Shown here in pieces: positions 12,808 to 37,371 of a DNA stretch of 64,000 nucleotides. The notes under the pieces are model-generated. The model was not told the origin of the DNA. It was given only the letters and a program-made list of their open reading frames with translations, and ran no database searches. A program made the translations under genes and the position numbers. The stretch's first letter is position 1. Every line of letters starts with the position of its first letter. Origin of the DNA: an uncultured Actinomycetes bacterium (GTDB lineage Bacteria; Actinomycetota; UBA4738; HRBIN12); assembly GCA_963704725.1 (NCBI GenBank), contig OY969934.1, positions 352,001-416,000 on the forward strand, given 5' to 3'.

Positions 12808-13569
12808 TTGACGCTCCGGGTGTACCTCGCCGGCAACGTCGCCGTCGAGCACGGGGACGCGCTCGTGCCCGAGAGGCGCCTTCCCGGACGGCAGGGCCGG
12901 CTCACCCTGGCCGTGCTGACGTGGGAGCGGGCCCGGGCGGTCTCGGTCGACGAGCTCGCCGACGTCGTGTGGGACGGCGCTCCGCCGGCCGCGTGGCAGA
13001 CGGCGCTGCGTGCCCTGGTCAGCAAGCTCCGCGCCGCGCTCGACGAGGCCGGGGCCGGCGCGAGCATCGAGCACGCGTTCGGCTGCTATCAGCTCCGGCT
13101 GCCGGCGGACGCCTGGGTCGACGTCGAGGCCGCGACTGCCGCCGTCCACGAGGCGGAGGCCGCCCTCCACCAAGGCGACCTCCAGGCCGCGAACGGGGCC
13201 GCGCTCGTCGCCAACGCCATAGCCCGCCGGCCGTTCCTGCCCGGGGACGCCGGGGAGTGGGTGGAGCGGCGGCGAGAGCACCTCCGGCAGGTGCGCATCC
13301 GCGCCCTCGAGGTGCGGGGCCGGGTCGCCCTGGCCAACCACGATCCGGCCGGCGCGGCCACCGACGCGGGGCTCGTGGTCGAGCTCGAGCCCTACCGCGA
13401 GACCGGCCACGTCCTGCTCATGCGCGCCCACGCGGCTGCCGGGAACCCGGCGCAGGCCCTCGCGGCGTTCGAGCGGCTGCGGACCACCCTGGCGGACGAG
13501 CTCGGCGCGTCCCCATCACCGGAGACCGAGGCGGCGTTCCTGGAGATCCTCGGTCGGGGACCCCGCTGA
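12808..13569 (+). CDS. SARP/AfsR-type regulator (wHTH + BTAD only)
   Basis: [51 protein letters not shown]; TTG start with GGAGG RBS. Confidence 0.88.
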
Positions 13570-20755: not shown

Positions 20756-21676
20756 ATGGATCTCGCGGATCGGGTGGTGGGCGGGTGCCTCGGGCTCGCG
20801 CTCGGGGACGCGCTCGGGGCCCCCTTCGAGTTCCTGAGGGCCCGCAACGTCCCGAGCCCGGTCCCGGCGCTCGAGCGGCCGTGGCTCGACCGCCCGCCGG
20901 GCTCGACCACCGACGACACGGCCCTGGCCAGGAACCTCATGCGGAGCCTGGCCGAGCGCGGCGGGTTCGATCCCGGCGACCTCGTGGAGCGCCATCTGGC
21001 CTGGTACCGGAGCGATCCCCCCGACGTCGGCACGATCACCGGCCGGGTCCTGCGCCGGGTCGACCGGGGTGAGGACGCGTCCGCCGTGGCCCGCGACGTC
21101 TGGGAGCAGCGCGGCCCCGAGGTCTCGGCCGGCAACGGGTCGGTGATGTACTGCGCCCCGCTCGGGTTCGCCTACGCCCACCGTCCCGAGGAGCTGTTCG
21201 AGCTCGCGCCCGCACTCTCGGCCCTCACGCACTACGACGGCCGGTGCCGGACCGCGGTCCTCGCGGTGACGCTGGCCGCCGCGGCGCTCGTCCGAGGCGA
21301 ACGAGCCGAGGCCGCCGCCCGCTCGGCGCTCGACGCCGTGCTGCCGCTCGAGGGTGGAGAGGAGCTCGAGTACCTCGTCGACGCCGCCGGGAGCCCCCGC
21401 CCGATCGACGGTCCGGACCAGGGGTTCTGCCTGTTCACGGCGGGGCTCGCGTTCCAGGCCCTGACCCGCGACACGGGCTTCGAGGCCGAGCTCCGGCGGG
21501 TGGTCTCGCTCGGCGGCGACACGGACACCAACGCCGCGGTGGCCGGCGCCCTGCTCGGCGCCCGCGACGGGATCGGCGCCCTGCCGAGGGCGTGGCTCGC
21601 GCGCCTCCTCGACGCCGACACCATCCGAGCCGAAGCCGAGGTCCTCGTTCCGCTCGCTCGAGCCGCTACCGCGTGA
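20756..21676 (+). CDS. ADP-ribosylglycohydrolase (DraG/ARH family)
   Basis: GLALGDALGAPFEF, TDDT, GNGSVM, THYD, GGDTDTNAAVAGALLGA. Confidence 0.93.
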   Translation: MDLADRVVGGCLGLALGDALGAPFEFLRARNVPSPVPALERPWLDRPPGSTTDDTALARNLMRSLAERGGFDPGDLVERHLAWYRSDPPDVGTITGRVLRRVDRGEDASAVARDVWEQRGPEVSAGNGSVMYCAPLGFAYAHRPEELFELAPALSALTHYDGRCRTAVLAVTLAAAALVRGERAEAAARSALDAVLPLEGGEELEYLVDAAGSPRPIDGPDQGFCLFTAGLAFQALTRDTGFEAELRRVVSLGGDTDTNAAVAGALLGARDGIGALPRAWLARLLDADTIRAEAEVLVPLARAATA

Positions 21677-23798
21677 CCGGTTCCGGCGCGTACACGCGCT
21701 CGAGGTACTCGCGGAGCATCCGGTCGGAGCCGAACATCGGCGGGATCGTGCGGAGCGAACGCTTCACCATGGCCACCCAGGCGCGCGGGATCCCGGCGCC
21801 GTCGCGGTCGTGGAACGTCGGCAGCAGCTCACGCTCGATCAGGTCGAACAGCGTTGCGGTGTCCCGGTCGTCCTGGGCCTCGGGATCGGGGGCGGGCGAC
21901 CCGTCGCCGATCACCCAGCCGTTGGTCCCGTCGTGGGCCTCGGCCCACCACCCGTCGGGGACCGAGAGGTTCAGGCCGCCGTTCAGCGCGGACTTCATCC
22001 CGCTCGTGCCGCTCGCCTCCATCGGGGGGCGGGGAAGGTTCACCCAGACGTCGCACCCGGCGACGAGGTTCAGGGCGACGCCTAGGTCGTAGTCCTCGAT
22101 GAAGGCGATCCTCGGGGCGACGGTCGGCGCCCACGGGCTTCGGATCAGCCCCGACAGGGCGGCCTTGGCCTCGTCGTCGCGGGGATGCGCCTTGCCGGCG
22201 ATGACGAACTGCACGGAATCGGGCTTGCCGAGCAGCGCCTCCAGGCGCTCGGGGTGCCGGAACAGCAGATGGAGCCGCTTGTACGTGGCCACGCGCCGGG
22301 CGAAGCCGAGCGTCAGCCGATCGGGGTCGAACGCCTGGGCGCCGACCTCGACGTTGGTGGGGTCCTCGTTGCGGCCCAGCCGTCCCGCCGCGTCCGCCTC
22401 GCGGACGTACTCGACGAGGCGGGCGCGGAGCATCGTCCGCGTCTCCCACAGCTCCTCGTCCGAGATGCCCTCGACGGCCCGCCACGTCTCGGGCTCATCG
22501 GCCCGATGCCGCCATCCCGGGCGGAGGTGGTGGTCGAGCAGCTCCCGCACCGGCTCGGCCATCCACGTGGGCAGGTGCACGCCGTTGGTCACGTGGCCGA
22601 TCGGGACCTGGTCGTCCGACTCGACGTCGAACAGCGGACGCCACATCGTCCGCGCGACCTTGCCGTGGAGCCGGCTCACCGCGTTCGAGCTCCTCGAGAG
22701 CCGAAGCGCTAGCGACGTCATCCCCACCGAGTCCTCGCCGAGGATGGCCCCGAGGCGCCGCAGCCGCTCGGGCTCGATGAGCCCGTCGAGCACCTCGAGG
22801 ACCACGTCCGGGTCGTGGCTCTCGTTCCCGGCCGCCACCGGGGTGTGCGTCGTGAAGACCGTCTTCGCTCTCGCGCGGGCCAGGGCCTCGTCCTCCGACG
22901 CGCCGGTCTCGCGCTCGCTCGCCGCGAGCTCGAGCGGGGCGAACGCGCCGTGGCCCTCGTTCACGTGGATCACCGAGGGCTCGATGCCCATGGCCCGGAG
23001 CGCCTTCATGCCGCCGACCCCGAGCATCGCGTACTGCTCCAGCCGCACCGTGCGATCGCCCACGTACAGGCGGGCGGTGATCCAGCGCTCCGCGATGCCG
23101 TTGTCGGCGCGGTTCGCGTCCAGCAGGTACAGCGGCACGCGCCCCACCTGGACCCGCCAGATCTGCGTGCGGACGATGCGGCCGCGGATCGGGACGTCCA
23201 CGACGAGCGGCGACCCGTCCTGCCCGCTCACGAGCACGAGCGGCAGGCGGTCCGGCTCGGTCTCGATCCAGTAGTCGTGTTGCCATCCCGTCGCGTCGAG
23301 CCGCTGGTGGTAGCCCCCCTTCGAGTACAGGATCCCCACGCCCACCATGGGGATCCGCAGGTCCGACGCGCCCTTCAGGATGTCGCCGGCCAGGACCCCC
23401 AGGCCGCCGCTGTAGATCGGGAGTGACCGATGGACCCCGAACTCGGCGCAGACGAAGGCGACCGGGCGCTCTCGCGAGACCTCGCCCCGGGAGACGTACG
23501 CGGCGGCGAAGTCCGCCTCCATGACCTCCATGAGCGCGGCGGCAGCGGCGTGGACGTCGTGGTCGCGGGCGATCTCCTCGAGCTGGCGCGGCGGGAGCTG
23601 GCCGAGCAGCCGGATCGGGTTGCCGCGGCAGCGCTCGTGGCGGAGGGGGTCCAGGCTCCGGAACAGCTCCTCGCCCCCCGGCGTCCACGACCAGCGGTAG
23701 TTGTAGGCGACCCGCGCCAGCGGCCACAGGCGCTCGGGCAATCGGTCCGCGAGATCGTCGACCGCGCGCTCGAGATCCTCCGTCCCGTCACGGTTCAT
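21666..23798 (-). CDS. glgP: Alpha-glucan (glycogen/maltodextrin) phosphorylase
   Basis: YSGGLGVLAGD, NEGH, FTTHTP, FARRVATYKR, AGKAHP, EASGTSGMK PLP-lysine motif. Confidence 0.95.
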   Translation of the reverse strand: MNRDGTEDLERAVDDLADRLPERLWPLARVAYNYRWSWTPGGEELFRSLDPLRHERCRGNPIRLLGQLPPRQLEEIARDHDVHAAAAALMEVMEADFAAAYVSRGEVSRERPVAFVCAEFGVHRSLPIYSGGLGVLAGDILKGASDLRIPMVGVGILYSKGGYHQRLDATGWQHDYWIETEPDRLPLVLVSGQDGSPLVVDVPIRGRIVRTQIWRVQVGRVPLYLLDANRADNGIAERWITARLYVGDRTVRLEQYAMLGVGGMKALRAMGIEPSVIHVNEGHGAFAPLELAASERETGASEDEALARARAKTVFTTHTPVAAGNESHDPDVVLEVLDGLIEPERLRRLGAILGEDSVGMTSLALRLSRSSNAVSRLHGKVARTMWRPLFDVESDDQVPIGHVTNGVHLPTWMAEPVRELLDHHLRPGWRHRADEPETWRAVEGISDEELWETRTMLRARLVEYVREADAAGRLGRNEDPTNVEVGAQAFDPDRLTLGFARRVATYKRLHLLFRHPERLEALLGKPDSVQFVIAGKAHPRDDEAKAALSGLIRSPWAPTVAPRIAFIEDYDLGVALNLVAGCDVWVNLPRPPMEASGTSGMKSALNGGLNLSVPDGWWAEAHDGTNGWVIGDGSPAPDPEAQDDRDTATLFDLIERELLPTFHDRDGAGIPRAWVAMVKRSLRTIPPMFGSDRMLREYLERVYAPEPVTR

Positions 23799-23853
23799 GA
23801 GGCCACATCCTACGGCGCTGCCCATTCGCCGCCGTAGCAGGCAGAATGGCCCG

Positions 23854-26800
23854 GTGAGCGAGCGGGAGCCGTCGGCGATGCGCGAGGAGCGCAAGGTGGT
23901 GACGGCGATGTTCGCCGACCTCGTCGGGTCGACCGCGCTGGCCGAGCGCCTCGATCCCGAGGACCTCAAGCTCGTCGTGAACGACGCCATCACCCGCGTG
24001 ATCGGCGCCGTCGAGGCCTTCGGGGGAACGGTCAAGGATCTCGCCGGCGACGGGGTCCTGGCCCTGTTCGGGGCTCCGCAGTCCCACGAGGACGACCCCG
24101 AGCGCGCCACCCGCGCCGCCCTGCAGGCGACCCAGGAGATCGTCGCCTACGCCAGGGACGTCGAGCAGGCCTTCGGCGTCCAGGGCTTCGGCGTCCGGGT
24201 GGGGGTCGCCACCGGCCCCGTCGTCGTGGGGGCCGTCGGCGCCGGCAGCCGCGTCGAGTACGGGGCGCTCGGGGACGCCGTGAACCTCGCGGCCCGGCTG
24301 CAGTCCGCGGCGGATCCCGGGACCGTCCTCGTCGGCTCGCACACCCGCCGCCGGATCGCGCTCCTGTTCGACTGGAGCGAGCCGATGGAGCTCGCGCTCA
24401 AGGGCAGGGCCGAGCCCGTCACCGCGTACCGGCTCGAGGGCGTTCGCGCCGGGCCGGGCGGCCCCCGCGCGGCCGGCCCGGCGCAGACGCGACTCGTCGG
24501 TCGCGAGCGCGAGCTGGCCGAGGCGCGGACGGCGGTCGACGCGGCGCTCGCGGGCTCGGGCCGGATCCTGTTCGTGACGGGCGAGCCGGGGATCGGCAAG
24601 AGCCGGCTGCTGGCCGAGCTCCGCCAGCTCGTGGAGGGCGCCAGCCCGGCGCACGGCCGGGCCCTGTGGGTCGAGGGCCGGTGCGTCTCCTACGGCGAGT
24701 CGATGCCGTACTGGCCGTTCCGGGATCTCCTTCGGTCCTGGCTCGGCGTCCTGGCGGACGAGCCGGAGCTCCGGGTGCGCGTGGCGCTTCGCCGGAGCGT
24801 CTCGCGGCTGTTCGGCGACCGCGTCCTCGAGGTCTACCCCTACCTCGGCGCGATGCTCGGCCTGTCGCTCGAGCCCGACGCGAACGACCGACTCGAGGAG
24901 CTTTCGCCGGAGGCGCTGCAGTACCGGACGTTCGAGGTGCTCCGGGCCCTGGTCGTGCGCCTGGCCCAGGACGGACCCGTCACGGTCGCCCTCGAGGACC
25001 TGCACTGGGCCGACGCCACCTCGCTCCAGCTCCTTGAGCGGCTCCTCGTCGACACGGAGGTGTCGGCCCTGCTCCTCGTGCTGACCAGCCGCCCCGAGCG
25101 CGACCATCACTCCTGGCGGGTCAAGGAGGCGGCCGCACGCGAGCTTCCCCACCGCACCCGCGAGATCGCGCTCGACGCGCTCTCGGGCGACGCCGGACGG
25201 GAGCTCCTGCGCGCCCTCGTCGGCGGGGCCGCCCTGCCCGCGGAGATGGAGCGCCGCATCCTCGAGCCGGCCGAGGGCAACCCGTTCTTCCTCGAGGAGA
25301 TCGTCCGGTCCCTCGTCGACGTCGGCGCGCTCGTCCGCGAGCCGCAGGTCTGGCGATTCGACCACGCGGTCGACGTCCAGATCCCACCGACCGTCGAGAA
25401 GGTCATCCTCACCCGCATCGACCGCCTCGCCCCGGGCCCCCACGAGGCGCTCATGGCGGCGTCGGTGCTGGGGCGGCAGTTCGGGCTGCCGCTGCTCGAG
25501 GCCGTCACCGGGGGGAACGGGTCGGTCGAGCGCTCGCTGAGCGAGCTGCAGCGGCTCGACCTCCTCCGCGAGAGCCGCAGGTGGCCGGAGCCGGAGTTCC
25601 GCTTCAAGCACGCGCTGATCCAGGAGGCGGCGTATCGCACCCTCGTGGTGCGCGGAGCGGACGAGGCTGCACCGCAAGGCCGCGGAGTGGCTCGAGGCGT
25701 CGTACGCCGGTCGCGACCACGAGGTGGCGGGGCTCCTGGCCCACCACTGGCTGGCCGCCGAGGACGAGGACAAGGCCGTCACCTACCTGACGAGGGCGGG
25801 CGACCGCGCCCGGCTGGACTACGCCCTCGACGAGGCGATCGGCCACTACCGGGAGCTGCTGCCGATCCTGGAGCGCCGCGGCGAACGCGGGGAGGTCGCG
25901 CTGGTGCTGTTCAAGCTCGCGCTGGCCCTGCACGTGTCCCTGCGGTTCGAGGAGGCGAACGAGACCTACCAGCGGGCCTTCGAGTTCTGGACGCCGCCGG
26001 AGTCCTCACCCGCCCCGCCGACGGCGACCCTGCGCGTGGCCACCAGCTTCCTGCCCAACGACCCCGACCCCCGGTCGGCGATCGCCTGGCCGAACATCCA
26101 GCTCTGCATGCAGCTCTTCGACCGCCTCGTCGAGGCGTGGCCCGAGCGGACCATCGTCCCCTTGCTGGCCGAGCGGTGGGAGATCTCGCCCGACGGGCTG
26201 CGATACGTCTTCCATCTGCGGGAGGGCGTCCGATGGTCGGACGGGACGCCGCTCACGGCGCGCGACGTCGAGTTCGGCATCAAGCGCGTGCTGGATCCCG
26301 ACGTGCCCGGGTCCTCCGTCGCGATCTACTTCGTCCTGGAGAACGGTCAGGACTACTACCTGCGTCGCAACGACGATGCGGACGCGATCGGCGTCCGGGC
26401 GCTCGACGACCGGACCGTGGAGTTCCGGCTCGCTGCGCCCGCCCCGTACTTCATGAGCGTCATGAACCGCCCCGACGGCGGTCCCCAGCCCCGCCACGCC
26501 ATCGAGCGCCACGGCGACGCGTGGGTCGACCCGGCCGTGCAGGTCGTGAGCGGGCCCTTCCGGGTGGCCGCGAAGGGGGACGACGTCTTGGTCCTCGAGC
26601 GGCGCGCGGACTACGGTCGCGCGCGGCCGGGCAACGCGGCGCGGATCGAGCTTGTCCGGACCGGGATCGCGGACGCGGTCGAGCCGTACGGGCGCGACGA
26701 GCTCGACCTCGTCACCGTCCGCTACACGCCCAGACTGGCGGATCTCGTCCCGGAGGTCGCCCGCGACGCGTCGCCGGGGCCGGCGGCGTGGTCGGCGTAC

Positions 26801-27520
26801 CTCGCGTTCGACCACTCCGATCCCGTGCTCGCCAACGTCGAATTCCGGCGTGCGCTGGCCCACGCCGTCGATCGGGAGGAATTCGAGCGGACGGCGCCGG
26901 AGAACCTCGTCGTCGCGCGGGGCGGGATCGTCCCGCCGGCGCTCCAGGGACACACGCCGGACATCGCCCTGTCGTTCGATCCCGACGAGGCGCGTGCGTG
27001 CCTCGAGCGGTCCGGCGTGGGCTCGGCGCGGATCACGGTGGGCGCGTACGCCCCGTGGGCCCACCCCTTCCTCGAGCCGCTCGTCCGCATGTGGCACGAC
27101 GTGCTCGGTCTCGACGTCGGCATCCGGCGCTGGACCGTCGAGCAGGGGTACGCGGTCCCCAAGCTCACCGATATCTCCGGCACCTACGTGACGGGGTGGC
27201 TTCCGGGCTACGCCGATCCCGAGTACTTCCTCCGCCTGCTGTTCCAGTCGGACAGCCGGACGAACGAGGGCGGGTTCTCGCACCCGCCGTTCGACGAGCT
27301 CATCGAGCGAGCCCGCCAGGAGCGCAGCGATCGCGCCCGCCTGGAGCTGTTCCACGAGGCCGACCGGATGGCCGTGACCGAGCGGGTCGCCGTCATCCCC
27401 CTCGCGTACGGGCGCAGCATGGCCTTCGTCAAGCCGTGGGTTCAGGGATGGTGGGAGTTCGGCAAGTCCTCCGCGAGCTTCGCCGACCTGCGGATCGACC
27501 CGTCGTCGCCTCGCGCCTAG
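23854..27520 (+). CDS. Class III nucleotidyl cyclase + AAA/STAND-type ATPase + TPR-like region + family-5 solute-binding domain fusion; frameshift near 25655
   Basis: FADLVGST, GDGVLALFG, GDAVNLAARL; GEPGIGKS, EDLHWAD, GNPFF, FKHALIQEAAY / ERTRLHRKAAEWLE; then LAERWEISPDG..Y.FHLREGVRWSDG.PLTA.DV, SGPF, FRRALAHAVDR, W.PGYADP. Confidence 0.85.
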
Positions 27521-28533
27521 CCCGGCTTCTCGGCATGACCGCCGAACTGCCGCCGGAGCGCCGACAGGACCTTGTTGGCGAACTCCGACTCGCTCCGCGA
27601 CTCGAACCGGTCGTACAGCGCCGCCGAGAGCACGTGGACGGGGACGCCCTCGTCGACCGCGGCCAGGACCGTCCACCGCCCCTCGCCCGAGTCCGACACG
27701 CGGCCGCCGAAGCCCTCGAGCTCCGGGTCCTCGAGCATCGCCGCCGCGGTGAGGTCGAGCAGCCAGGAGGCGATCACGCTCCCGCGCCGCCACACCTCCG
27801 CGATCTCGGGCAGGTCGAGGTCGTAGCGGTAGTACCGGGGGTCCCGCAGCGGCGTCGTCTCCGCGTCGGCCTCGCGCTCGGTGGCGCCGGCGCCGGCGTG
27901 CCGGAGCACGTTCAGGCCCTCGGCGTACGCCGCCATGAGCCCGTACTCGATGCCGTTGTGGACCATCTTCACGAAATGGCCGGCGCCGGCGGGGCCGCAG
28001 TGAAGGTATCCCGCCTCGGCCGTCGAGGCGTTGGCGTCGGTCCGGCCGAGCGTCCTCGAGGCGGCGTCGACGCCCGGCGCGAGGGCCGCGAAGATCGGGT
28101 CGAGGCGGGCCACGACGTCGTCCTCGCCGCCGATCATCATGCAGAACCCGCGCTCCAGCCCGAAGACGCCGCCGCTCACCCCGACGTCCACGAAGCGCAC
28201 GCCTCGCTTCCCGTACCGCTCGGCCCGGTCGACGTCGTCCCGGTAGTACGAGTTGCCCCCGTCGATCACCACATCGCCCGGCTCCATGAGCTCGGCGAGG
28301 CGGTCCGTCGTGGTCTCGGCGAAGGCGGCCGGCACCATGACCCAGGCCGCCCTGGGCGGTGAGAGCTTCTGGACCAACTCCTCGATCGAGCCCGCCCCGG
28401 TGGCCCCCTCGCGCTCGAGCAGCCGGACCGCGTCCTCGTTCACGTCGTACGCCACGACCTCGTGACCGTGGCGTACCAGACGGCGCGTCAGATTGGCGCC
28501 CATCCGGCCGAGGCCGACCATCCCGAGCTGCAT
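27517..28533 (-). CDS. gnd: Decarboxylating 6-phosphogluconate dehydrogenase (short NAD-type)
   Basis: GMVGLGRMG, IDGGNS, DVGVSGG, GHFVKMVHNGIEYG, DSGEGRW, RRQFGGH. Confidence 0.95.
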   Translation of the reverse strand: MQLGMVGLGRMGANLTRRLVRHGHEVVAYDVNEDAVRLLEREGATGAGSIEELVQKLSPPRAAWVMVPAAFAETTTDRLAELMEPGDVVIDGGNSYYRDDVDRAERYGKRGVRFVDVGVSGGVFGLERGFCMMIGGEDDVVARLDPIFAALAPGVDAASRTLGRTDANASTAEAGYLHCGPAGAGHFVKMVHNGIEYGLMAAYAEGLNVLRHAGAGATEREADAETTPLRDPRYYRYDLDLPEIAEVWRRGSVIASWLLDLTAAAMLEDPELEGFGGRVSDSGEGRWTVLAAVDEGVPVHVLSAALYDRFESRSESEFANKVLSALRRQFGGHAEKPG

Positions 28534-30071
28534 CAGACCACCTCCATCAGAGAGTCGAGCGTGACGCGCGCCACCCGCCGGCCGCGCGCCCGCAGCGAGC
28601 GCAGGTCGCCCGCGGCCTGCGCGTCGATCAGCGTGCCGAACGAGTAGGGCTGTCCCGGGATCGCCACGTCCGTTTCACGGTCCGCGTCGACGACCTGCAC
28701 GAACACGCCGTCGTTCGCGCCACCCTTGTGGAGCTGGCCGGTCGAGTGCAGGAACCGCGGCCCGAACCCCACGGTGGTGGCCACGCGGTGCCGGTCGCGG
28801 ATCGCCGTTCGCGCCCGCTGCAGCGCGTCCTCGGTCTCGGACGTGCGGTCGAGGTACGCCATGATCGCCACGTAGTCGCCGGCGCCGGCCTGCTCCAGGA
28901 GCGCGCGCGGGTCGTCGAACCCCGGGTCCTCGGGCCGCCCTGCCAACAGGATCTGCCGCGTGGCGTCCTTGGCCTCCTGGACGTTCGGCTGGTCGAACGG
29001 GTTGATCTCGAGCACGTGGCCGGCCACCGCCGTCGCCAGCTCCCACCGGAAGAGCTCGCCGCCGAGCTTCCCGACGTCGTCGAGCTCGAGTCGGACGACC
29101 GGATGGCCCGCGCCCTCCAGGGCGTCGAGGCCGTCGTGCGCTCCCACGGCCACGAACACGCGGTCGTCTCCGTACGCGTCGGGGTCCGCGAGCGGCTCGC
29201 CCACGACCGGCACCACGCCGCGGTCCTGCTTGCCGGTGGACTCGGCCACGAGCTGCTCGACCCAGTCCCCCAGCGCGGCGACGTCCTCCGGCAGCACGAG
29301 CGTGAGCTTGTCCCGCCCCGCCCGCGCCGTCTCGCCGATCGCGGCGCCCAGCACCGCGCCGGGGTTCTCCGCCGACGGGGCGACGAGCTCGCAGGCCCGG
29401 CGCATCTCGGCGGCCCCGTCGAGCAGCTCGTGCAGCGGGGCCCCGATGAGGGCGCCCGGCACGAGCCCGAAGTAGGACAGCGCCGAGTACCGGCCGCCGA
29501 TGTCCGGGGGGTTGGCGAACACGGGCCGGAAGCCCCGCTCCGTCGCCAGGTCCTCGAGCGGCGTCCCCGGGTCCGTGATGGCGACGAAGCGACCGCCGTC
29601 CGGCACCAGCTCCCAGAAGTGCGCCAGGTGGGACCGGGTCTCCGTGGTCGTGCCCGACTTGCTCGCGACGACGAACAGCGTCGCGTCGAGGTCCAGCTCC
29701 GCGGTGACGCGCCGCACGGTCTCCGGATGCGTCGTGTCGAGGACCACGAGCTCGAGGGCGCCGTCGGCCGCCCCGAACGTCGACCTCAGCATCTCGGGGG
29801 CGAGCGAGGACCCGCCCATCCCGAGCAAGACCGCCGTCCGGAGCCCGTCCTCGGCCGCGCGGCCGGAGAAGGCCTCCAGCTCGTCGATCCGCTCCCGCAT
29901 CGGGTCGAGGACGCTCAACCACCCCAGGCGGTCGGCGATCTCGGTGGGATCGTCCTTCCACACGGTGTGATCCCGGGCCCAGATCCGCTCGACGATCCGG
30001 CCACGGTCCATCGCGGCGAGGCGCTCGGAGACCGAGCCCGGCATGGCCGCGAGCCGCGGCATCAGGTCCAC
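28533..30071 (-). CDS. pgi: Glucose-6-phosphate isomerase (Tal-Pgi type, without the transaldolase half)
   Basis: RLGWL, LGMGGSSLAP, ASKSGTTTE, IGGRYSALS, EQLVAESTGK, NPFDQPNVQEAK, GPRFLHSTGQLHKGG. Confidence 0.9.
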   Translation of the reverse strand: MDLMPRLAAMPGSVSERLAAMDRGRIVERIWARDHTVWKDDPTEIADRLGWLSVLDPMRERIDELEAFSGRAAEDGLRTAVLLGMGGSSLAPEMLRSTFGAADGALELVVLDTTHPETVRRVTAELDLDATLFVVASKSGTTTETRSHLAHFWELVPDGGRFVAITDPGTPLEDLATERGFRPVFANPPDIGGRYSALSYFGLVPGALIGAPLHELLDGAAEMRRACELVAPSAENPGAVLGAAIGETARAGRDKLTLVLPEDVAALGDWVEQLVAESTGKQDRGVVPVVGEPLADPDAYGDDRVFVAVGAHDGLDALEGAGHPVVRLELDDVGKLGGELFRWELATAVAGHVLEINPFDQPNVQEAKDATRQILLAGRPEDPGFDDPRALLEQAGAGDYVAIMAYLDRTSETEDALQRARTAIRDRHRVATTVGFGPRFLHSTGQLHKGGANDGVFVQVVDADRETDVAIPGQPYSFGTLIDAQAAGDLRSLRARGRRVARVTLDSLMEVV

Positions 30072-30184
30072 GGGGTTCGCCTCCTTCCTCGTCGGGCCGC
30101 CCGGTGGCGAGTCGCCTCGAGCCGTGTAACGCTGCCGTCCGCCAAGCGTACTCATCGCCGGGACGACCACGAGGGAGCCACGCC

Positions 30185-31402
30185 ATGCCGGAGCTGATCA
30201 GGGTCTACGGGGCCAGCTGGTGCCCCGACTGTCGTCGAGCCAAACGGTTCCTCGGCGACCAGCGCGTCCCGTTCGAGTGGCACGACATCGAGGTCGATCC
30301 CGACGGCGTTCGGGTCGTCCAGGAGCGCAACAACGGGAACAACATCATCCCGACGATCGTCTTCCCAGACGGCACGCACCTCGCCGAGCCCACGAACGAG
30401 CAGCTCGCCGAGAAGATCGGCCTCGAGCGCGCCGCGATGATGCACGTCTACGACCTCATCGTCATCGGGGGCGGCCCGGCCGGTCTCACCACCTCGATCT
30501 ACGCGGCGCGCGAGAACCTCCGGACGCTCGTGATCGACAGCAAGGGCCTCGGCGGCCAGGCCGGTGTCACCGAGCGCCTGGACAACTACCCAGGCTTCCC
30601 CGAGGGCATCGGCGGCGCCGAGCTGGCCGACCGCATCGTCAAGCAGGCGCGCCGCTACGGGGTGGAGATGCTCCAGGCGGTCTCGGTCACGCAGGTCTCG
30701 AGCGACGGCGAGCAGGTCGACGTCGAGACCGCGACCGGCGACCACTACCACGCCCGCGCCGCGCTCCTGGCCACCGGCTCCTCCTACCGACGCACGGGTG
30801 CGCCCGGCGAGGCGGACCTGATCGGCGCCGGCGTCCACTTCTGCGCCACGTGCGACGGCCCCTTCTACAAGGGGGCGGAGCAGCTCGTCGTCCTGGGCGG
30901 CGGCAACAGCGGGCTCGAGGAGGGACTGTTCCTCACCCAGTTCGCGGATCGGGTGACGATCGTCCAGCGCGGGGATCGCCTGACGGCCGGCAAGCTGCTC
31001 CAGGACAAGGTGAGCCGGCATCCCAAGATGGAGGTGCTGCTGAACCGCGAGGTCGTGGAGTTCCGGCCGAAAGGGGACGGGAGCGGCAAGCTCGGCGCCA
31101 TGGTGCTGCGGCGCTCCGAGACCGGGGAGACCGAGGAGCTCCACCCGGCGGCCGCCTTCGTCTTCATCGGTCTGGACGCGAACACCGGGTTCGTGAAGGG
31201 CGTCGTCGACCTGGACGAGCGGGGGCTCATCGTCACCGGCATGGGGTGCTCGACCAGCATGCCGGGCGTCTTCGCCGCGGGGGACGTCCGGGCCGGCTCG
31301 ACGAAGCAGCTGGCCTCGGCCGTCGGCGAGGGGGCCGCCGCCGCCATCGCCATCCGTCAGTACCTCGAGGCCCAGGAGGCCAAGCCCGTCCACACGATGT
31401 GA
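30185..31402 (+). CDS. Glutaredoxin/mycoredoxin-like domain fused to thioredoxin reductase
   Basis: N-terminal WCPDC and IPT cis-Pro motif; GGGPAG, NYPGF, CATCDG, GGGNSG, FAAGDVR. Confidence 0.92.
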   Translation: MPELIRVYGASWCPDCRRAKRFLGDQRVPFEWHDIEVDPDGVRVVQERNNGNNIIPTIVFPDGTHLAEPTNEQLAEKIGLERAAMMHVYDLIVIGGGPAGLTTSIYAARENLRTLVIDSKGLGGQAGVTERLDNYPGFPEGIGGAELADRIVKQARRYGVEMLQAVSVTQVSSDGEQVDVETATGDHYHARAALLATGSSYRRTGAPGEADLIGAGVHFCATCDGPFYKGAEQLVVLGGGNSGLEEGLFLTQFADRVTIVQRGDRLTAGKLLQDKVSRHPKMEVLLNREVVEFRPKGDGSGKLGAMVLRRSETGETEELHPAAAFVFIGLDANTGFVKGVVDLDERGLIVTGMGCSTSMPGVFAAGDVRAGSTKQLASAVGEGAAAAIAIRQYLEAQEAKPVHTM

Positions 31403-31418
31403 ACCCAAGGAGCGCGTC

Positions 31419-31622
31419 GTGAACCCCAAGGAGATCTTCGAGCTGATCGTGAAGGCCGACGAGAAGCTGAAGTACGCGACCGCCGGCAAGCAGGACGTCC
31501 GGCGGCAGCAGGCGATCGACCTGCTGAAGCAGGCGCGGGCCTCGGCCGTGGAGATCGGGAACGACCCGCTGGTGCAGCAGGCCGACACGCGGCTGGCCGA
31601 CCTGGGTGAGTCGTCGTCGTGA
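31419..31622 (+). CDS. Small helical hypothetical protein (67 aa)
   Basis: AAGGAG RBS, GTG start, strong GC3 codon bias, GTGA overlap with the next gene. Confidence 0.75.
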   Translation: MNPKEIFELIVKADEKLKYATAGKQDVRRQQAIDLLKQARASAVEIGNDPLVQQADTRLADLGESSS

Positions 31623-33809
31623 CCGAACGCCGTCCCACCCCGCTCGACCCCACTCCCGAGCCGCGTCCTGAGGAAGCCTCCGGCGACGAGAAGGCCTACC
31701 CGCCCGAGCTCGGCACCGACGCGATCGCGATCCTCGAGGGTCGGACGTTCATGTTCTCGAACTCGGCGGGCGACATCCCGCCGGGCTCGACCGGCGGCCT
31801 GCTCCACGACGACACCCGCTTCGTCTCGTGCTGGGAGCTGACGCTGAACGGCCGTCCGCTCTCGGTCCTGAAGTCGAGCGTCGTCGACTACTACTCGGCC
31901 GCGTTCTTCCTCACGAACCCCGAGCTCCCCGGCCTGCGCCCGAACAGCCTGACGATCCGCCGCTTCCGGTTCGTCGGCGGCGGCGTCCACGAGCAGATCG
32001 CGGTCTACAACCCCTCCGCCGAGCCGGTGCGCTTCGAGCTCCGGCTCTCGGTCGGCGCGGACTTCGCCGACCTGTTCGAGGTCAAGAGCGCGGTGCGCGA
32101 CCGCAGCGCGAGCATCGACGTCGAGCACGACCCGGACGAGCGAACGCTGCACTTCCACTACGAGGTGCCCGGCTTCCTCGCCGAGACCAACGTGCGCGTG
32201 GCCCGCAGCCGGGTCGCCGAGGGGATCGACGGCACGGGGCCGAGCGTTCCCGCGCTTCCCGAGGTCGACGGCGACGGGTTCGTCTGGCGGATCGAGCTGG
32301 GGCCGCGGAAGCTCCTCGACGCGCTCGTGCGCGCCACCGTCCGCGTGAACGAGACCGTGCTCGAGCCGATGCACCAGGACTTCGGCGACCAGCAGCAGCT
32401 CTCCGAGGGCGCGCTCACGAGCTGGCTCTCCGAGGTCCCGCGGTTCGAGTCCGACAGCGCGCTGCTGAAGGGCGTGCTCGACAAGTCGGTGGTCGACCTC
32501 GCCGCCCTGCGGATCGAGGGCGAGCTCGGCGGGGAGCGGTACGTGCTCCCGGCCGCCGGTCTGCCGTGGTTCATGACGCTGTTCGGTCGCGACACGCTCA
32601 TCACGGCGTTGCAGACCGTCGGCATCGGACCCGACCTCGCGCGCGGGGCGCTCCACCTGCTCGGCGCGCTCCAGGGGACGAAGGTCGACGACTTCCGCGA
32701 CGAGGAGCCCGGCAAGATCCTGCACGAGATCCGGCAGGGCGAGCTCACCGTGCTCGGCGAGAAGCCGCACAGCCCGTACTACGGGACCGCCGACGCGACG
32801 CCGTTGTACGTGATCCTGATGTCGGCGTACTGGCGGTGGACCGGCGACGACACGTTCGTCCGGGCCCGCTGGCCGGTGGTGCTCGCGGCGCTCGAGTGGA
32901 TCGACCGCTTCGGCGACCGCGACGGCGACGGCTTCATCGAGTACCAGACGCGCTCGTCGCAGGGTCTCGGCAACCAGTGCTGGAAGGACTCGTGGGACGG
33001 CGTGCAGTTCGCCGACGGGCGGATCCCCTACCTGCCGATCGCGACGTGCGAGCTGCAAGGCTATGCGTACGACGCCAAGCTCCGGGCGGCCGAGCTCGCC
33101 GAGCGGCTCATGGGCGACCCGGCACTCGCCGACCGGCTCCGCAAGGAGGCCGAGGTCCTTCGCGACCGGTTCAACGACGTGTTCTGGAGCGAGGCGCGGG
33201 GCGGCTACTTCGTGCTCGGCCTCGACGGCGACAAGCGCCCGATCGACTCGATGACCTCGAACATGGGTCACCTGCTGTGGTCGGGGATCGTGCCCGAGGA
33301 CCGCGCCGAGCGGGTGGCCTCACACCTGATGTCGGAAGCGATGTTCTCGGGCTGGGGCGTGCGAACGCTGTCGAGCGACGACGCCGGCTACAACCCGATC
33401 GGCTACCACGTCGGGACGATCTGGCCCCACGACAACGCGATCGTCGCGATGGGCCTCGAGCGCCACGGCTTCCGCGACGAGGCGAACCGCATCTGCCTCG
33501 CCCAGCTCGAGGCCGCGGGTTTCTCGAGCTTCCGCCTGCCCGAGGCCTTCGCCGGCCTCCACCGCGCGTTCGGCCGGTTCCCTGTGCCCTATCCGACCGC
33601 GTGCAGCCCACAGGCGTGGGCGACCGGCGCGCCGTTCCTGTTCCTCAAGGTGATGCTCGGCCTCGACGCGAGCGACGGAGAGGTGACGATCGACCCCCGC
33701 GTGCCCGAAGGAGATCGGCCGCGTGTTCGTGCACGGCCTCCACGCCTTCGGCACCCACTGGGACGTGGAGGCTCACGGCTCCAACGGCCACGTCCGTCTG
33801 ACTCACTAA
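31619..33809 (+). CDS. Amylo-alpha-1,6-glucosidase / glycogen debranching family protein; frameshift near 33710
   Basis: DTRFVS, DFADLFEVK, AAGLPWFMTLFGRD, EPGKILHE, YYGTADAT, NQCWKDS, YH.G.IWPHD, RLPEAF, ACSPQAWA; alternative frame ends HGLHAFGTHWDV...LTH* at 33809. Confidence 0.92.
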
Positions 33810-33865
33810 GCGCGGGCGTTCAAAGGCGGCATAGCACGCCTCGTCACGCGGCCTCAGCCCTCCGC

Positions 33866-34546
33866 TCAGTCCTCGACAATCCACAGCATGGAACCAGGGA
33901 GCATGCCCGATAGCATCGATTCAAGGTCATGAAGACCTCGACTCAGGGTATAGCTCAACTCGGCATCGGATAGTCCGGTGGTGTCCCGCTGCTCCTGAAT
34001 GACCTGGCCAATCACGTCGCGGATAGCTGCCGCGTCGTTTGTGAGTCTCGCCAAGAGCCCCTGAGCAACTTCGGTGCTCAGCCATCCACCCTGCAGCCAG
34101 TGCTTGCACTGGTCGGCGACGGGAGCTACCCACGTGGCGTGCTTTGCGAAGAACGTCTCGAGTGGAGCCCCTCGGAGTGTCATCTCTACTGTGCCGCGCT
34201 CCCAGCCTGCGACTCGGAGTAGCTCCGCGAGTAGGAAGGAGCGAGCCCGTATGCCACCCGCAGGTACACAATGGCTCACCAGGACAACCAGCAGGCGTGC
34301 TGCCGCCGCACGCTCCGAACCGAAGTCGATGGAGGGTGGGTGCACTATCAGGTCCCACAGTTCTGTGTCTGCGGGGTCGAGGCGCGTGAGTGTGAGCTGA
34401 TCGCGCCTCCTGGGATCCGACCTCACTGTTCCGACGAATTTGGCGACGTCTCCCGTGAGAAGATCGTCGAGACGCCGCACTCCGGCAAGAGCACCCTCTA
34501 CCTCGGCGACGTCAAGGCGCCAACACCTGTGCTCAATGGCCATCAT
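33866..34546 (-). CDS. Hypothetical protein, probable immunity protein of the RHS toxin
   Basis: Lower GC; ATGA overlap with the toxin stop codon; no recognisable family. Confidence 0.65.
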   Translation of the reverse strand: MMAIEHRCWRLDVAEVEGALAGVRRLDDLLTGDVAKFVGTVRSDPRRRDQLTLTRLDPADTELWDLIVHPPSIDFGSERAAAARLLVVLVSHCVPAGGIRARSFLLAELLRVAGWERGTVEMTLRGAPLETFFAKHATWVAPVADQCKHWLQGGWLSTEVAQGLLARLTNDAAAIRDVIGQVIQEQRDTTGLSDAELSYTLSRGLHDLESMLSGMLPGSMLWIVED

Positions 34547-35118
34547 GGCTTCCCGCACAGCTCGTTGACTTCGATCCCACGTAGATCGCGTTGCGTCCTT
34601 CCGTACTTGGAGAGGATTGTACTTGTGTCCCCAACGCAGTTGATCGACCAGTGCCCTGGGCCGAACTCCGGTGTGAACGTTGCGGCGCAGCTCGGCGGCA
34701 ACCCAGAGACTGGCGCCGTGGTCCCGGGGAATCGAAGAGCGACGCTGAGCCTGAAAGGAACCAGGCACGGTTTGCTGGTGCCCTGAAAGGGTCGCTCCAT
34801 GGTTGAGACGCCATCGGGACCGGGCCGGAAGGACGCAGGAGACAATGCAAGTCCAGACTGACATCCGGGGTTTCCATCGACTCCGCGGTAGGTAACTATC
34901 AGCTCGCCACCCTCATCAACGTCAACAGGTCCCGGGAGCTCAACCGTCGGAGTGGGCTCAGGTTGTGGAGGGGTCTGTGGACAGGCGCCTGCAGCCGCGG
35001 ATGGGTTGCCACCCGCACTACACTCCGCCTGCGTCGCCGCACCAGATGAGCCGCCGATATGGATGCGCTCTGAGAGTTGATTCACCAGCGCCCTGCAATC
35101 CGCGTCGATCCAGCAATC
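34543..35118 (-). pseudogene. C-terminal toxin region of the RHS protein, separated from the core by an IS
   Basis: DCWIDADCRAL...PQPEPTP linker...IVTYRG...DGVST...GPGHWSI...CGKP*; rejoins the core in frame if the IS is removed. Confidence 0.75.
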
Positions 35119-36130
35119 GGGTCTGCCAGGTTTGGTTGACTCGCGGGGTTGACGGCTTTCAGGCCGCATAGGCGACCTCGTGCACGGCTTCGAACTCGAT
35201 CGGGGTGAGCTTGCCGAGGGCCCGCTGACGGCGCCGGCGGTGGTAGGTGCGTTCGATCCAAGTGACGATCGCCAGGCGGAGCTCGTCTCTGGTCTGCCAG
35301 CGCCCCGGTCCAGGACGTTCCTCTGCAGCAGGGCGAAGAACGACTCCATGGCGGCGTTGTCGGCGCAGGTCCCGGTGCGACCCATCGACCCGATGAGGCC
35401 GTGGTTCCTCAGCAGACGCACGAACTTCCCGGAGCGGAACTGACTGCCGCGGTCCGAGTGGACCAGCGTGCCGGCAGGGCTCCGCAGGCCGATCGCGCCT
35501 CGGAGCGCGGCCACGGCCAGAGAAGCCTTCATCCGGTGGTCCATCGAGTAGCCGACGATGCGACCGGAGAAGGCGTCCTTGATCGCACAGAGGTAGAGCT
35601 TGCCCTCCGCCGTCGGGTGCTCGGTGATGTCGGTGAACCACAGCTCGTTCGGCCTGCGGGCACCGAACGCACGGCGGACCAGGTCGTCGTGCACCGGCTC
35701 TCCGGGCCTGGGCCTTCGTCCCTTCTTGCGGGCGAGCACCGAGAAGATGCCGTGCGCGCTGCACAGACGGTGCACCCGGTTCTCGCTGGCGGTGATGCCG
35801 CGCTCGGCGACGAGCTCGTCGGTGATGAACCGGTAGCCGAAGGCCGGATCATCGGCGTGGATCTGCAGGGCGGCGTCGACCAGGTGGGCGTCGGACCAGT
35901 CCCTGGTGCTGACCGGGTTCGCCTTCCACTTGTGATAGGCCTGCGGCGAGAAGCCGAGCACCCGGCAGGTCACCGTGACGGGGATCCCGTCTGCGGCAAG
36001 CTCGCGGACCAGCGGGTACATCATTTTGGGTTGACGCCCTGCCCGAGGTAGACGGCGGCCCGGCGGAGCACCTCGTTCTCCTGCTCGAGCAGCCGGTTGC
36101 GCTTTCGCAGCTCGCGGATCTCCGCATCCT
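35119..36130 (-). mobile_element. IS3-family element, left part deleted (orfA C-terminal remnant plus orfB DDE domain), flanked by GAT direct repeats
   Basis: AEIRELRKRNRLLEQENEVLRRAA; WFTDITEH, HSDRGSQF, DNAAMESFF; ends GCAGACCC; GAT at both junctions. Confidence 0.9.
35159..36024 (-). CDS. IS3 OrfB transposase (frameshift near 35305)
   Basis: MMYPLVRELAADG...PNELWFTDITE...HSDRGSQF...ESFF / WIERTYHRRRRQRALGKLTPIEFE. Confidence 0.9.
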
Positions 36131-36953
36131 ATCCATGAGAAAGACGAGAATCCAGATTCCCGCCAAGACGAGGGCAAGTACAGGAACAAACCACGGAGAG
36201 GTCCCGGTCACAACGCCGAGGACCAACAACATCGATTCCACTGCTGACTCGACACCCGCCGTGAAGAGTGTCGCCACGATCCAGGGTCCGAGAAATGGAC
36301 TGCCCGCGAGGTGGCCCGTTGGATCCGTCCAGGTCGTCGGATCGTTGGCAACGTACGCGTAGACGCTATAGCCCTGCGTGCCAGGGGCATTCGGAATCAG
36401 GGTGTCGGCCGAGAGCATCCGGCCAGTAGCCGGATCGTACGTTCGCGCCCGAAGGTCGACGAGGCCCGTGGCATCCGTCGGCTCACCAGTGAACCCGAAC
36501 AGGCCGTCCAGGCCGGACACCGCCCGCGGGGCGCCGAACGCGTCGTATGAGGTCGACCCGACCAGGGTGCCGGAGTCGTCGGTCATGCCGCGCACCGAGT
36601 CCAACCGATCCCCGAGCGGGAAGCTCGGCTGAGAGCCCGAGACGCCCTCAAGGACGCCGTGCGCGTGGAGGTATCGGCTCGTCCCGTCGCCGACCACTGA
36701 GGGCAGGCCGCCCTCGCGGTCGAGCAAGAACGAAGCGTCCACGCCGTCGACGGTCGCGCCGACGCGGATTCCGTCGCCGTCGTACGTGTATGTGGCGGAG
36801 TGATCGCCGATCTCGGCCGAGGTGAGCCGAGAGGCGTCATCCCATGCAAACGAATCCGAGCCCGCGACGATGAGGTTCCCCGCCTGGTCGTAGGAGTACG
36901 AGGCGCCGCCGACGGATGTGAGCTCGCCGGCCACGTCGTAGGCGTAGCTCGTT
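36131..36953 (-). pseudogene. RHS/YD-repeat protein core, 5'-truncated by an IS
   Basis: YAYDVAGEL, YSYDQAGNL, YTYDGDG, YDAFG, FGFTGE, LRARTYDPATGR, YAYVANDPTTWTDPTG followed by two hydrophobic segments. Confidence 0.93.
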
Positions 36954-37024
36954 TGTGGTGCGTCATGATTTCTTGGACACACGGAAGTGTGATGAGATGA
37001 ATCCTCCGAGAAGGGAATGGCGCC

Positions 37025-37357
37025 GTGGGACGCAAGCCGTTCAAGACCCCCGAGGAGAAGCTCGCGATCGTCCTCAGCGTGCTGCGCGGCGAGATGACAC
37101 AGGTCGAGGCCGGTCGGCGCCTGCAGATGAGCCAAACGACGATCGCCAAGTGGCAGAAGCAGTTCCTCCAAGGCGGCCACGAGGCCCTCGCCCGGGGCGA
37201 CAACGCCACCGGCCCCGCGTCCAGGCGTGAGGACGAGCTGCAGTCTCAGGTCGACGAGCTGCAACAAGCACTCGGTGAGGCCTACGTCGAGCTTCGGGTC
37301 TGGCGCAAAGGGGGGGATCTCTACCCGGCTTCGAGGACCTCGAGGCGATCCGGATAG
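37025..37357 (+). CDS. IS3 OrfA (HTH + leucine zipper)
   Basis: EEKLAIVLSVLRGE...TIAKWQKQFL...LQSQVDELQQALGE. Confidence 0.88.
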   Translation: MGRKPFKTPEEKLAIVLSVLRGEMTQVEAGRRLQMSQTTIAKWQKQFLQGGHEALARGDNATGPASRREDELQSQVDELQQALGEAYVELRVWRKGGDLYPASRTSRRSG

Positions 37358-37371
37358 CCGCCCAGATCCCC

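Follow-up and report, generated by a model that had tools for sequence, protein, structure and literature searches.

A cyclase, STAND-type NTPase and OppA-like binding fold joined in one gene of uncultured Actinomycetota: a candidate cytoplasmic receptor cyclase

The DNA analyzed here, referred to below as the window, is a stretch of 64,000 nucleotides from an uncultured Actinomycetes bacterium (assembly GCA_963704725.1, contig OY969934.1, positions 352,001 to 416,000 of the forward strand). It carries a fusion gene in which a class III nucleotidyl cyclase domain is followed by an NTPase of the STAND type, a short region resembling tetratricopeptide repeats (TPR) and a complete family-5 solute-binding fold. 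In our opinion, the locus is probably a single gene encoding a cytoplasmic STAND-type receptor cyclase of about 1220 residues, in which the OppA-like fold would serve as the terminal sensor; we hold this view with moderate confidence. The gene and its parts, in window coordinates, are as follows.

23854..27520, + strand: whole fusion gene (cyclase, STAND, TPR and binding protein), read in two frames, with one extra base
23887..24435, + strand: class III nucleotidyl cyclase catalytic domain (Pfam Guanylate_cyc and alignments to solved cyclases)
24490..25080, + strand: AAA_16 NTPase core of the STAND module (Walker A GEPGIGKS, Walker B ...LEDLHWAD)
25081..25647, + strand: rest of the STAND core, helical, as far as the break, with a conserved 'AEGNPFFLEE' (the TIGR03903 alignment passes through it)
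25648..25657, + strand: frameshift site (10 nucleotides versus 9 in 13/13 orthologues)
25655..25987, + strand: six helices forming about three TPR-like pairs (AlphaFold2 model; Pfam TPR_12 weak)
25988..26023, + strand: Pro-rich linker from the TPR-like region to the binding-protein fold
26024..27496, + strand: complete OppA-like family-5 solute-binding fold (Pfam SBP_bac_5 core 26150-27256)

A preliminary sequence-only reading of this DNA had proposed that one gene joins a class III cyclase, an AAA/STAND-type ATPase, a short TPR-like region and a complete family-5 binding domain. The three main domains were confirmed by a Pfam hidden Markov model scan. In the frame opening at 23797, Guanylate_cyc scored 70.7 bits (cut-off 21.9, residues 31-213) and AAA_16 scored 98.6 bits (cut-off 32.6, residues 232-428), and in the frame opening at 25724, SBP_bac_5 scored 198.8 bits (cut-off 32.4) over profile positions 1-365 of 368. 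The TPR-like region stood in part: it is modelled as six helices in TPR-like pairs, but TPR_12 was matched only below its cut-off of 30.1 bits, with 19.9 bits in the frame opening at 25724 and 12.1 bits in an intact orthologue. The start codon is either GTG 23854 or ATG 23878, and a GGGAG located 9 nucleotides upstream of the ATG gives the latter the better spacing.

The G+C content of the region around the fusion gene is about 72%, a value at which long open frames are common. The first frame is open to 28362, and Arg/Gly/Pro-rich nonsense begins right after '...AAYRTLVV' ('...FKHALIQEAAYRTLVV'); the second frame, open from 25619, reads '...AERTRLHRKAAEWLE' onward. Between the Leu-Val/Leu-Leu codons and an Arg codon, all 13 orthologues compared have nine bases and the window has ten (25648-25657), hence a single +1 frameshift, as had been claimed, and the comparison with these 13 in-frame orthologues bears this out. 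The two halves are contiguous and in frame in 12 of the 13 fetched relatives, the thirteenth locus, in genome G022, carrying the TPR/binding-protein part only. Since intact in-frame orthologues of about 1220 residues, 64-82% identical, occur in many metagenome-assembled genomes (MAGs) of uncultured Actinomycetota, 23854-27520 is one gene.

Two explanations of the extra base are considered: an error of the assembly, or a mutation that recently inactivated the gene. The possibility that the gene is a true pseudogene in the present genome, broken by a recent one-nucleotide insertion, has to be taken seriously, although we do not favour it. The base is present in the assembly as given, and the site is not a long homopolymer. 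Against this, both halves are 74-81% identical to their closest orthologues and contain no more stops or shifts, and nine tested genes of the window, from rpsD to the debranching enzyme gene described below, match their relatives end to end. In run X2, which comes from another sample, a near-identical contig of 151 bp bridging the site has one base fewer at 25650. This single contig has a depth of 2 and four mismatches and belongs to a near relative: it hints that the population is in frame and settles nothing for the present assembly. Over the four runs that were compared with the site, nothing more than short contigs of relatives came up. The strain's own reads were not found in any of the public runs compared (sampled-word shares of 0.25 at best and no more than 0.11 for the others), which also counts against the pseudogene.

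The fusion is kept in frame across orders and is a common type in uncultured soil Actinomycetota. An orthologue of the TPR/binding-protein half (67-79% identity) was present inside an open frame of 1210-2133 residues in 16 of 40 relatives; this tally takes in the unpublished genomes G011 and G029, on which no other claim rests. All three Pfam domains were found in one polypeptide in the 5/5 full-length open reading frames (ORFs) scanned. A word-indexed search with an intact orthologue of 1221 residues as the query gave 1045 clusters at E <= 1e-10. The best 120 of these are all at least 70% identical over the binding-protein part, and most of them carry SBP_bac_5, Guanylate_cyc and AAA_16, the shorter entries being devoid of the cyclase or of both the cyclase and AAA_16. 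They originate from MAGs labelled Actinomycetota, Gaiellaceae and Thermoleophilaceae, and their database names include 'ABC transporter substrate-binding protein' and 'oligopeptide transport system substrate-binding subunit/class 3 adenylate cyclase'. A relative is encoded by 395 stretches of species-representative genomes. The best 78 of these loci, with 64-100% identity to the query orthologue, are all from MAGs, labelled Actinomycetota, Actinomycetes, Gaiellaceae, Solirubrobacterales or just bacterium. The G022 locus mentioned above (L022, 8017-9996, - strand) holds a gene of 659 residues for the TPR and binding-protein parts, 67% identical and without cyclase and NTPase, flanked by three genes whose products end in cyclase domains (one of them also matches Abhydrolase_1 and Hydrolase_4); here the system may have been split or rearranged.

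Residue conservation was counted in 53 full-length orthologues. The pattern suggests that the working parts of the protein, namely the catalytic residues, the Walker residues and the N-lobe of the binding fold, are under selection. The cyclase domain scores 70.4 bits with Guanylate_cyc in the intact orthologue, and when the orthologues were aligned to solved cyclases, the first metal-binding Asp was present in 52/53 (with one gap) and the second metal-binding Asp, the catalytic (transition-state) Asn and the Arg in 53/53. The cyclase is probably active, judging from these residues. The column where the specificity-determining Lys or Glu is expected is occupied by Asp in 53/53 orthologues, the family motif being 'KDLAGD' versus 'DKFVGD'. 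The same column holds Lys in CyaC, CyaB and the engineered chimera 6fht, and Glu in 2w01, which we take to be the guanylyl cyclase Cya2. In the second specificity column we found Ala (25), Gly (22), Ser (5) and Thr (1), so that the family has neither of the canonical pairs (Lys with Asp/Thr for ATP, Glu with Cys/Gly for GTP). Since the purine-specifying Lys is replaced by an invariant Asp, the identity of the product is uncertain, and the nucleotide preference cannot be read from the sequence. Rv0386 of Mycobacterium tuberculosis reportedly also has non-canonical specificity residues (Gln/Asn), a result said to be that of Castro et al. in 2005.

The genome contains 22 matches to the cyclase domain and 13 to the cyclic-nucleotide-binding domain. 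In 21 of the cyclase domains (the 22 hits minus one short partial hit), the specificity column holds Lys in 12, Asp in 4 and other residues in 5. The other three Asp-bearing domains have His in place of the catalytic Asn, so that the fusion protein has the only domain in the genome combining an intact catalytic set with the Asp. A motif search, which caught only 10 of 75 wide relatives, showed the 'KDLAGDG' form nowhere outside the window's clade and sister clusters.

All 53 orthologues retain, in the NTPase, the Lys of Walker A (GxPGIGK[ST]) and the Asp of Walker B ('ED..HWAD' stretch), and a conserved 'GNPFFLEE' motif lies C-terminal to the Walker motifs. The match to NACHT is weak (E 0.0016). 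TIGR03903, the model of a TOMM kinase/cyclase fusion, aligns over the cyclase, NTPase and helical parts (model positions 282-926) with 284.2 bits versus a cut-off of 705.75. No helix-turn-helix (HTH) family was found among the Pfam hits up to E = 1. The AAA_16 match, the motifs and the sub-cut-off TIGR03903 alignment are the basis on which the NTPase is regarded as a putative STAND-type switch. In the AlphaFold2 model, the region that follows consists of helices 2-17, 22-35, 39-55, 59-76, 79-95 and 99-112, arranged in TPR-like pairs.

About 8 residues precede the cyclase domain, with no N-terminal hydrophobic segment or export signal, and the binding domain is internal, coming after about 740 cytoplasmic residues. 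Kyte-Doolittle hydropathy over 19 residues is highest in the core of the binding protein (1.98) and next highest in the TPR-like helix 'VALVLFKLALALHVSL' (1.77). The hydropathy values and the model agree with the sequence-only reading that the protein has no signal peptide or transmembrane segment, and no other reading comes close to that of a cytoplasmic protein.

The TPR/binding-protein part was modelled by AlphaFold2 with a mean predicted local distance difference test (pLDDT) value of 80.4 and a predicted template modelling score (pTM) of 0.81. The nearest solved chains by sequence are OppA, OppAIV, DppE, MppA and DppA (E 1e-46 to 1e-26, full-length coverage). With Foldseek, OppA 1ola came first (3.3e-30), followed by OppAIV, MppA and DppE (to about 1e-26), and the target-normalised TM-scores of the top ten matches ranged from 0.63 to 0.81, the lowest belonging to MppA in its open form. 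Binders of opines and of sialic acid come below the peptide binders. The nearest NCBIfam models, PRK09755, OppA, SapA and DppA, were all matched below their cut-offs. No part of the protein is more conserved than the N-lobe (mean top-residue frequency 0.86-0.93).

The peptide anchors of OppA are replaced in the family. HMMER aligned 'RAGWCADY' of Salmonella OppA with 'VTGWLPGY' (family stretch 'GWLPGYADP'), which places Gly at the column of the anchoring Asp in 52/53 orthologues, and a hydrophobic residue occupies the Arg413 column. Going by the OppA literature for the roles of Asp419 and Arg413, we take Asp419 to be the residue that binds the alpha-amino group of the peptide. Across the wider module family, 58 of 75 long representatives still have the anchoring Asp, which suggests that ligand binding is ancestral; those without it include the window's clade and sister clusters. 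On the evidence of these alignments, the clamp, as we will call the binding fold, may be read as having a peptide-binder ancestry and as having been retuned in the window's clade to a different conserved ligand. The sequence-only reading had named a sugar phosphate, a maltodextrin or a peptide as the ligand. A sugar or maltodextrin is not supported by the domain itself, whose nearest solved relatives by both sequence and fold are peptide binders. The same relatives would speak for a peptide, but the canonical OppA anchors are missing.

The fold might also have some function other than binding a small ligand: it could be a protein-interaction or autoinhibitory module, or bind a macromolecular cue as the sensors of immune STAND proteins do. 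The loss of the OppA anchors (Gly for Asp in 52/53, a hydrophobic residue at the Arg413 column) would fit this idea, and the high conservation of one lobe fits a protein interface just as well. In PADLOC, moreover, the cyclase domain matches the PycC models of the Pycsar defence system, with 73.3 bits at best, which is about the score of the generic class III profile. We nevertheless judge it unlikely. The fold is complete and two-lobed like its ligand-binding relatives, and the anchoring Asp persists in 58/75 of the wider relatives. The gene is present here in a single copy, is 64-82% conserved across the loci retained from the species-representative genomes, and lies among housekeeping genes, unlike defence islands. 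No STAND or Avs model of PADLOC was matched. As regards a Pycsar effector partner, no recurrent neighbour was seen in the 78 loci, in which no search was aimed at effector families.

The NTPase, TPR-like region and clamp occur together with other outputs. An exhaustive profile-free search with the window's TPR/binding-protein part gave 1572 representatives (50% clusters) at E <= 1e-30, a count that takes in fragments and proteins whose other domains were left unchecked, and 13614 at E <= 1e-10. Among the best 150, proteins of 1050-1630 residues that match the full query at their C-terminus form the majority. Of the 75 long representatives among these 150, 37 were scanned; all 37 share the C-terminal match to the TPR/binding-protein part (SBP below), and their domain orders are the following.

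cyclase, AAA_16, SBP: 17/37
BTAD (SARP), AAA_16, SBP: 12/37
kinase, AAA_16, SBP: 1/37
BTAD, kinase, AAA_16, SBP: 2/37
HTH_3, AAA_16, SBP: 1/37
AAA_16, SBP only: 2/37
double SBP without NTPase: 2/37

Outputs that interchange on a constant NTPase-TPR-clamp module would be expected if the clamp were the input, and a portable module with swapped outputs fits a ligand-gated STAND switch. A more far-reaching proposal, which we put forward tentatively and consider possible rather than probable, is that a large, undescribed class of bacterial STAND switches with cyclase, SARP, kinase and HTH outputs senses its ligands through OppA-like clamps in the cytoplasm; that in the window's clade the clamp has been retuned from ordinary peptides to a highly conserved intracellular metabolite; and that the cyclase, with its invariant Asp and small residue at the specificity columns, makes a product other than cyclic AMP, such as cyclic GMP or another cyclic nucleotide. 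Two of the proteins retrieved, P0124 (2843 residues) and P0164 (2704 residues), contain four separate matches each to the TPR/binding-protein query and may be tandem multi-clamp proteins. In the window itself, a BTAD (SARP-type) ORF is located at 12649-13569, about 10 kb upstream of the fusion gene; BTAD is fused to the NTPase-TPR-binding-protein module in many relatives.

The domain order suggests how such a protein might work, with the class III cyclase as the output, the AAA_16 NTPase as the switch, and about three TPR-like pairs leading to the OppA-like clamp as the sensor. Class III cyclases need dimers for catalysis. At rest, the protein would be a monomer with ADP bound, held closed by contacts between the sensor and the NTPase. 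An intracellular small molecule would close the clamp and thereby release these autoinhibitory contacts; ADP would then be exchanged for ATP and the protein would multimerise, which would pair the cyclase domains into catalytic dimers and lead to the production of a cyclic nucleotide. The latter could be read by some of the genome's 13 cyclic-nucleotide-binding domains. The scheme as a whole is transferred by analogy from MalT and PH0952, as they are described in the available parts of PMC6468293 and PMC4381067. Two divergent cNMP_binding ORFs (80 and 87 bits) are present at 57981-58708 of the window, about 30 kb from the cyclase gene.

The fusion gene is surrounded in the window by the following genes.

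20756..21676, + strand: ADP-ribosylglycohydrolase (DraG-like), which lies directly upstream on the same strand in relatives without glgP
21666..23798, - strand: alpha-glucan family phosphorylase glgP (TIGR02094, 705 bits versus 191.7; ATG at 23798), divergent from the fusion gene
27517..28533, - strand: short-form 6-phosphogluconate dehydrogenase gnd (passes TIGR00872), convergent, its stop overlapping the end of the fusion gene by 4 nucleotides
28533..30170, - strand: phosphoglucose-isomerase-type protein pgi, convergent, true start uncertain
31619..33913, + strand: GDE-type amylo-alpha-1,6-glucosidase (Pfam)

The sequence-only reading had described this layout largely correctly. The convergence with pgi and gnd follows from the coordinates; the divergent gap of about 55 bp to glgP holds if the gene starts at GTG 23854, and becomes 79 bp with ATG 23878; and a debranching enzyme of the GDE type is indeed nearby, although it ends at 33913 and not at 33809. 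The absence of an ABC permease was likewise borne out: permease and ATPase families of ABC transporters were found in 0/43 ORFs scanned (10996-46076), and no permease recurs among the neighbours of the 78 loci. A promoter and terminator scan of the intergenic region between glgP and the cyclase gene found nothing, nor was any CRP-like palindrome visible by eye in this region.

That reading had gone further and tied the cyclic nucleotide to the mobilisation of carbon stores. In its full form, the binding domain would sense a sugar phosphate or a maltodextrin, and the cyclic nucleotide made in response would regulate flux in glycogen or pentose-phosphate metabolism by way of glgP, gnd, pgi and GDE. 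We surveyed the neighbourhoods of the best 78 loci with up to 10 kb of flank, the denominators being the loci with enough flank. In the window and its closest relatives, the gene does diverge from glgP (gap 47-152 bp), and among the closest relatives gnd lies 10-32 bp downstream. Over all loci, however, glgP was found within 500 bp upstream in only 6/58 and GDE within 10 kb in 1/41; gnd was found within 500 bp downstream in 7/62 and within 5 kb in 15/46, in two clades, and pgi within 5 kb in 8/45. At the loci with at least 8 kb on both sides, 14/34 had any of the four genes and 20/34 had none. At no locus did the carbohydrate genes share the direction of the cyclase gene; they were always on the opposite strand or several kb off. 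When the 837 neighbouring genes of the 78 loci were clustered, the commonest families were rpsD (22), gnd (17) and ADP-ribosylglycohydrolase (15), other recurrent neighbours being NlpC/P60, a sigma factor and a fusion of the Grx-TrxR type; no family that could be a conserved partner occurred in more than 22/78 loci.

A quick maximum-likelihood tree of the 53 orthologues, rooted at the midpoint, gives the same picture. The presence of gnd (13/36 scorable rows) needs only 2 changes on this tree, so that gnd looks inherited as a block with rpsD and housekeeping genes, and glgP (4/42) falls within one poorly resolved subclade. The genes for rpsD and ADP-ribosylglycohydrolase are found on both sides of the midpoint root. 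Some 25 rows lack rpsD, gnd, glgP and ADP-ribosylglycohydrolase as neighbours altogether; they belong to clades in which the protein itself has been kept, with 64-71% identity to the query orthologue. Most simply, the fusion gene would have an old position next to rpsD, ADP-ribosylglycohydrolase and gnd; glgP would have been inserted in the window's subclade, and in other clades the fusion gene would have moved. The carbohydrate genes travel with rpsD, the sigma factor, NlpC/P60 and a PBP gene, and thus form part of a housekeeping synteny block: the glycogen and pentose-phosphate neighbours are an inherited chromosomal context and not a conserved functional partner. Control of carbon flux consequently appears to be improbable, all the more since the nearest solved relatives of the clamp are peptide binders, the opine and sialic-acid binders ranking lower. 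On its side are the gnd counts within 5 kb (15/46), a deep clade with gnd, zwf and pgi a few kb downstream, and SgrR/DsvR, which, in the available part of the bioRxiv preprint 10.64898/2026.04.01.715812, show that a cytoplasmic SBP_bac_5 domain can serve carbon sensing.

Some other features of these neighbourhoods can be mentioned. The ADP-ribosylglycohydrolase gene lies within 500 bp upstream and on the same strand in 14/64 relatives, with gaps of 20-110 bp in most of them, and the two genes may be co-transcribed in those 14 relatives; in the window's subclade, glgP lies between them. At 30104-31402 of the window, a mycoredoxin/glutaredoxin-like domain is fused to a thioredoxin-reductase-type flavoprotein, and this gene is found downstream in 11/42 relatives. 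A patch of lower G+C content (0.63-0.68 versus about 0.72) directly follows GDE at 33866-38271 and contains two rve (integrase-core) transposase ORFs (34543-36189, - strand, and 37372-38271, + strand); it is probably an insertion-sequence cluster interrupting the synteny block of the relatives. In a few distant relatives (L016 5827-7152, L019 5483-6796, L040, L062 and L044), a gene of about 440 residues with a C-terminal cyclase domain adjoins the fusion gene, and the L016 copy also has an alpha/beta-hydrolase domain, presumably resembling the LipJ type (Rv1900c). An alpha/beta-hydrolase-cyclase was considered as a partner and rejected: it was seen in three distant loci and was within 3 kb in 3 loci overall (2/49 downstream, 1/52 upstream).

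It is very improbable that the protein is anchored in the membrane by a helix between the TPR region and the binding fold, with the binding domain facing outward as in receptor cyclases. The candidate helix 'VALVLFKLALALHVSL' does reach 1.77 on the 19-residue Kyte-Doolittle scale, but it carries an invariant Lys and an invariant His, fits the TPR sequence pattern and is modelled with a pLDDT of 83-91 as one half of a TPR-like pair, one of the six helices so arranged. A rough sum on the Hessa scale, computed by hand, is unfavourable for insertion, at about +4 kcal/mol, and the protein has no signal peptide or other hydrophobic segment. Two separate genes, one for a cyclase-NTPase and one for a free, possibly secreted, binding protein, can be dismissed with near certainty: the parts do fall in different frames of the assembly and G022 does have the 659-residue gene without the N-terminal half, but the first frame has no stop until 28362 and turns to nonsense past the break, the second lacks a signal peptide and carries on the STAND helix seen in the orthologues, and in 12/13 fetched relatives the two parts are fused in frame.

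Several points weigh against the receptor cyclase that we favour. The gene is out of frame in the present genome and may therefore be dead here. With a non-canonical pair of Asp and a small residue at the specificity columns, the cyclase could turn out to be weakly or unusually active. Confidence in the model of the binding fold is lowest (pLDDT <50) at residues 142-169, which are also its best-conserved stretch. A profile search of the PDB found no solved STAND core, the best 60 of 74 hits being all cyclase-domain matches, and this is why the STAND assignment rests on Pfam AAA_16, the motifs and the sub-cut-off TIGR03903 alignment. The occurrence of gnd in 15/46 loci and the deep clade with zwf and pgi a few kb off leave room for a pentose-phosphate link. 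The idea of an intracellular receptor cyclase, already present in the sequence-only reading, nonetheless appears plausible once it is separated from the tie to carbon stores, which is not supported: there is one cytoplasmic gene, the binding fold occupies the sensor position of STAND proteins, and the module is portable.

The Mclx group is the closest characterised architecture. According to the available part of PMC4452763, the M. tuberculosis proteins Rv0386, Rv1358 and Rv2488c consist of a class III cyclase homology domain, an AAA/NB-ARC-type ATPase and a LuxR HTH. The fusion resembles them in having an N-terminal class III cyclase followed by an ATPase of this type in one cytoplasmic actinobacterial protein, but it has a complete family-5 binding fold at the C-terminus, with no HTH match, where Mclx ends in a LuxR-type HTH. 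With MalT and PH0952, in which, as the available parts of PMC6468293, PMC4381067 and PMC10427625 describe it, the inducer lifts autoinhibition and drives multimerisation, it shares a putative NTPase switch and a TPR-like helical region. The output of MalT is DNA-binding and its inducer binds to the helical sensor, whereas here the output is a cyclase and a separate clamp follows the short TPR-like region. SgrR and DsvR likewise have a cytoplasmic SBP_bac_5 domain as the presumed sensing part (available part of bioRxiv 10.64898/2026.04.01.715812); they are two-domain proteins made of an HTH and a binding protein without NTPase switch or cyclase, whereas the fusion has an N-terminal cyclase and no HTH. 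No SgrR-named model was present among the NCBIfam hits at E <= 1e-5. Neither Mclx nor SgrR/DsvR joins a STAND switch to a clamp sensor.

OppA, MppA, DppE and DppA match over the full length and are the best matches in both sequence (E 1e-40 to 1e-46) and fold; unlike OppA-type proteins, the fusion is not exported, has no transporter genes nearby and has its peptide anchors replaced. The same AAA_16-TPR-SBP_bac_5 module, at 30-50% identity, is present in the fusions of uncultured Actinomycetota in which a SARP, kinase or HTH precedes the STAND and binding-protein parts, but their outputs differ and most of them keep the OppA-type anchoring Asp that is lost in the window's clade. The TOMM kinase/cyclase fusion (TIGR03903) aligns in its cyclase, NTPase and helical parts, as seen above (model 282-926); the match is far below the cut-off, and the fusion has no kinase domain and a different C-terminus. 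Full-text searches, whose coverage does not extend to subscription-only papers, found no paper on the fusion.

The fusion is best classed as a putative STAND-gated cyclase with an unusual sensor. Its significance lies in a widespread clamp-gated STAND module, in the lost peptide anchors and in the odd specificity residue of the cyclase, and not in the glycogen context. STAND switches are usually gated via repeat domains (TPR, leucine-rich repeats, WD40). A whole transporter-type binding protein acting as an intracellular gate would be a different kind of sensor, and an experimentally tractable one, since ligand screens are easily done on isolated binding proteins. The database label 'ABC transporter substrate-binding protein' is misleading for metabolic reconstructions. 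The family is abundant in uncultured soil Actinomycetota, a group without cultured model organisms, and the identification of the ligand and of the nucleotide product would open up a signalling pathway in an almost unstudied lineage.

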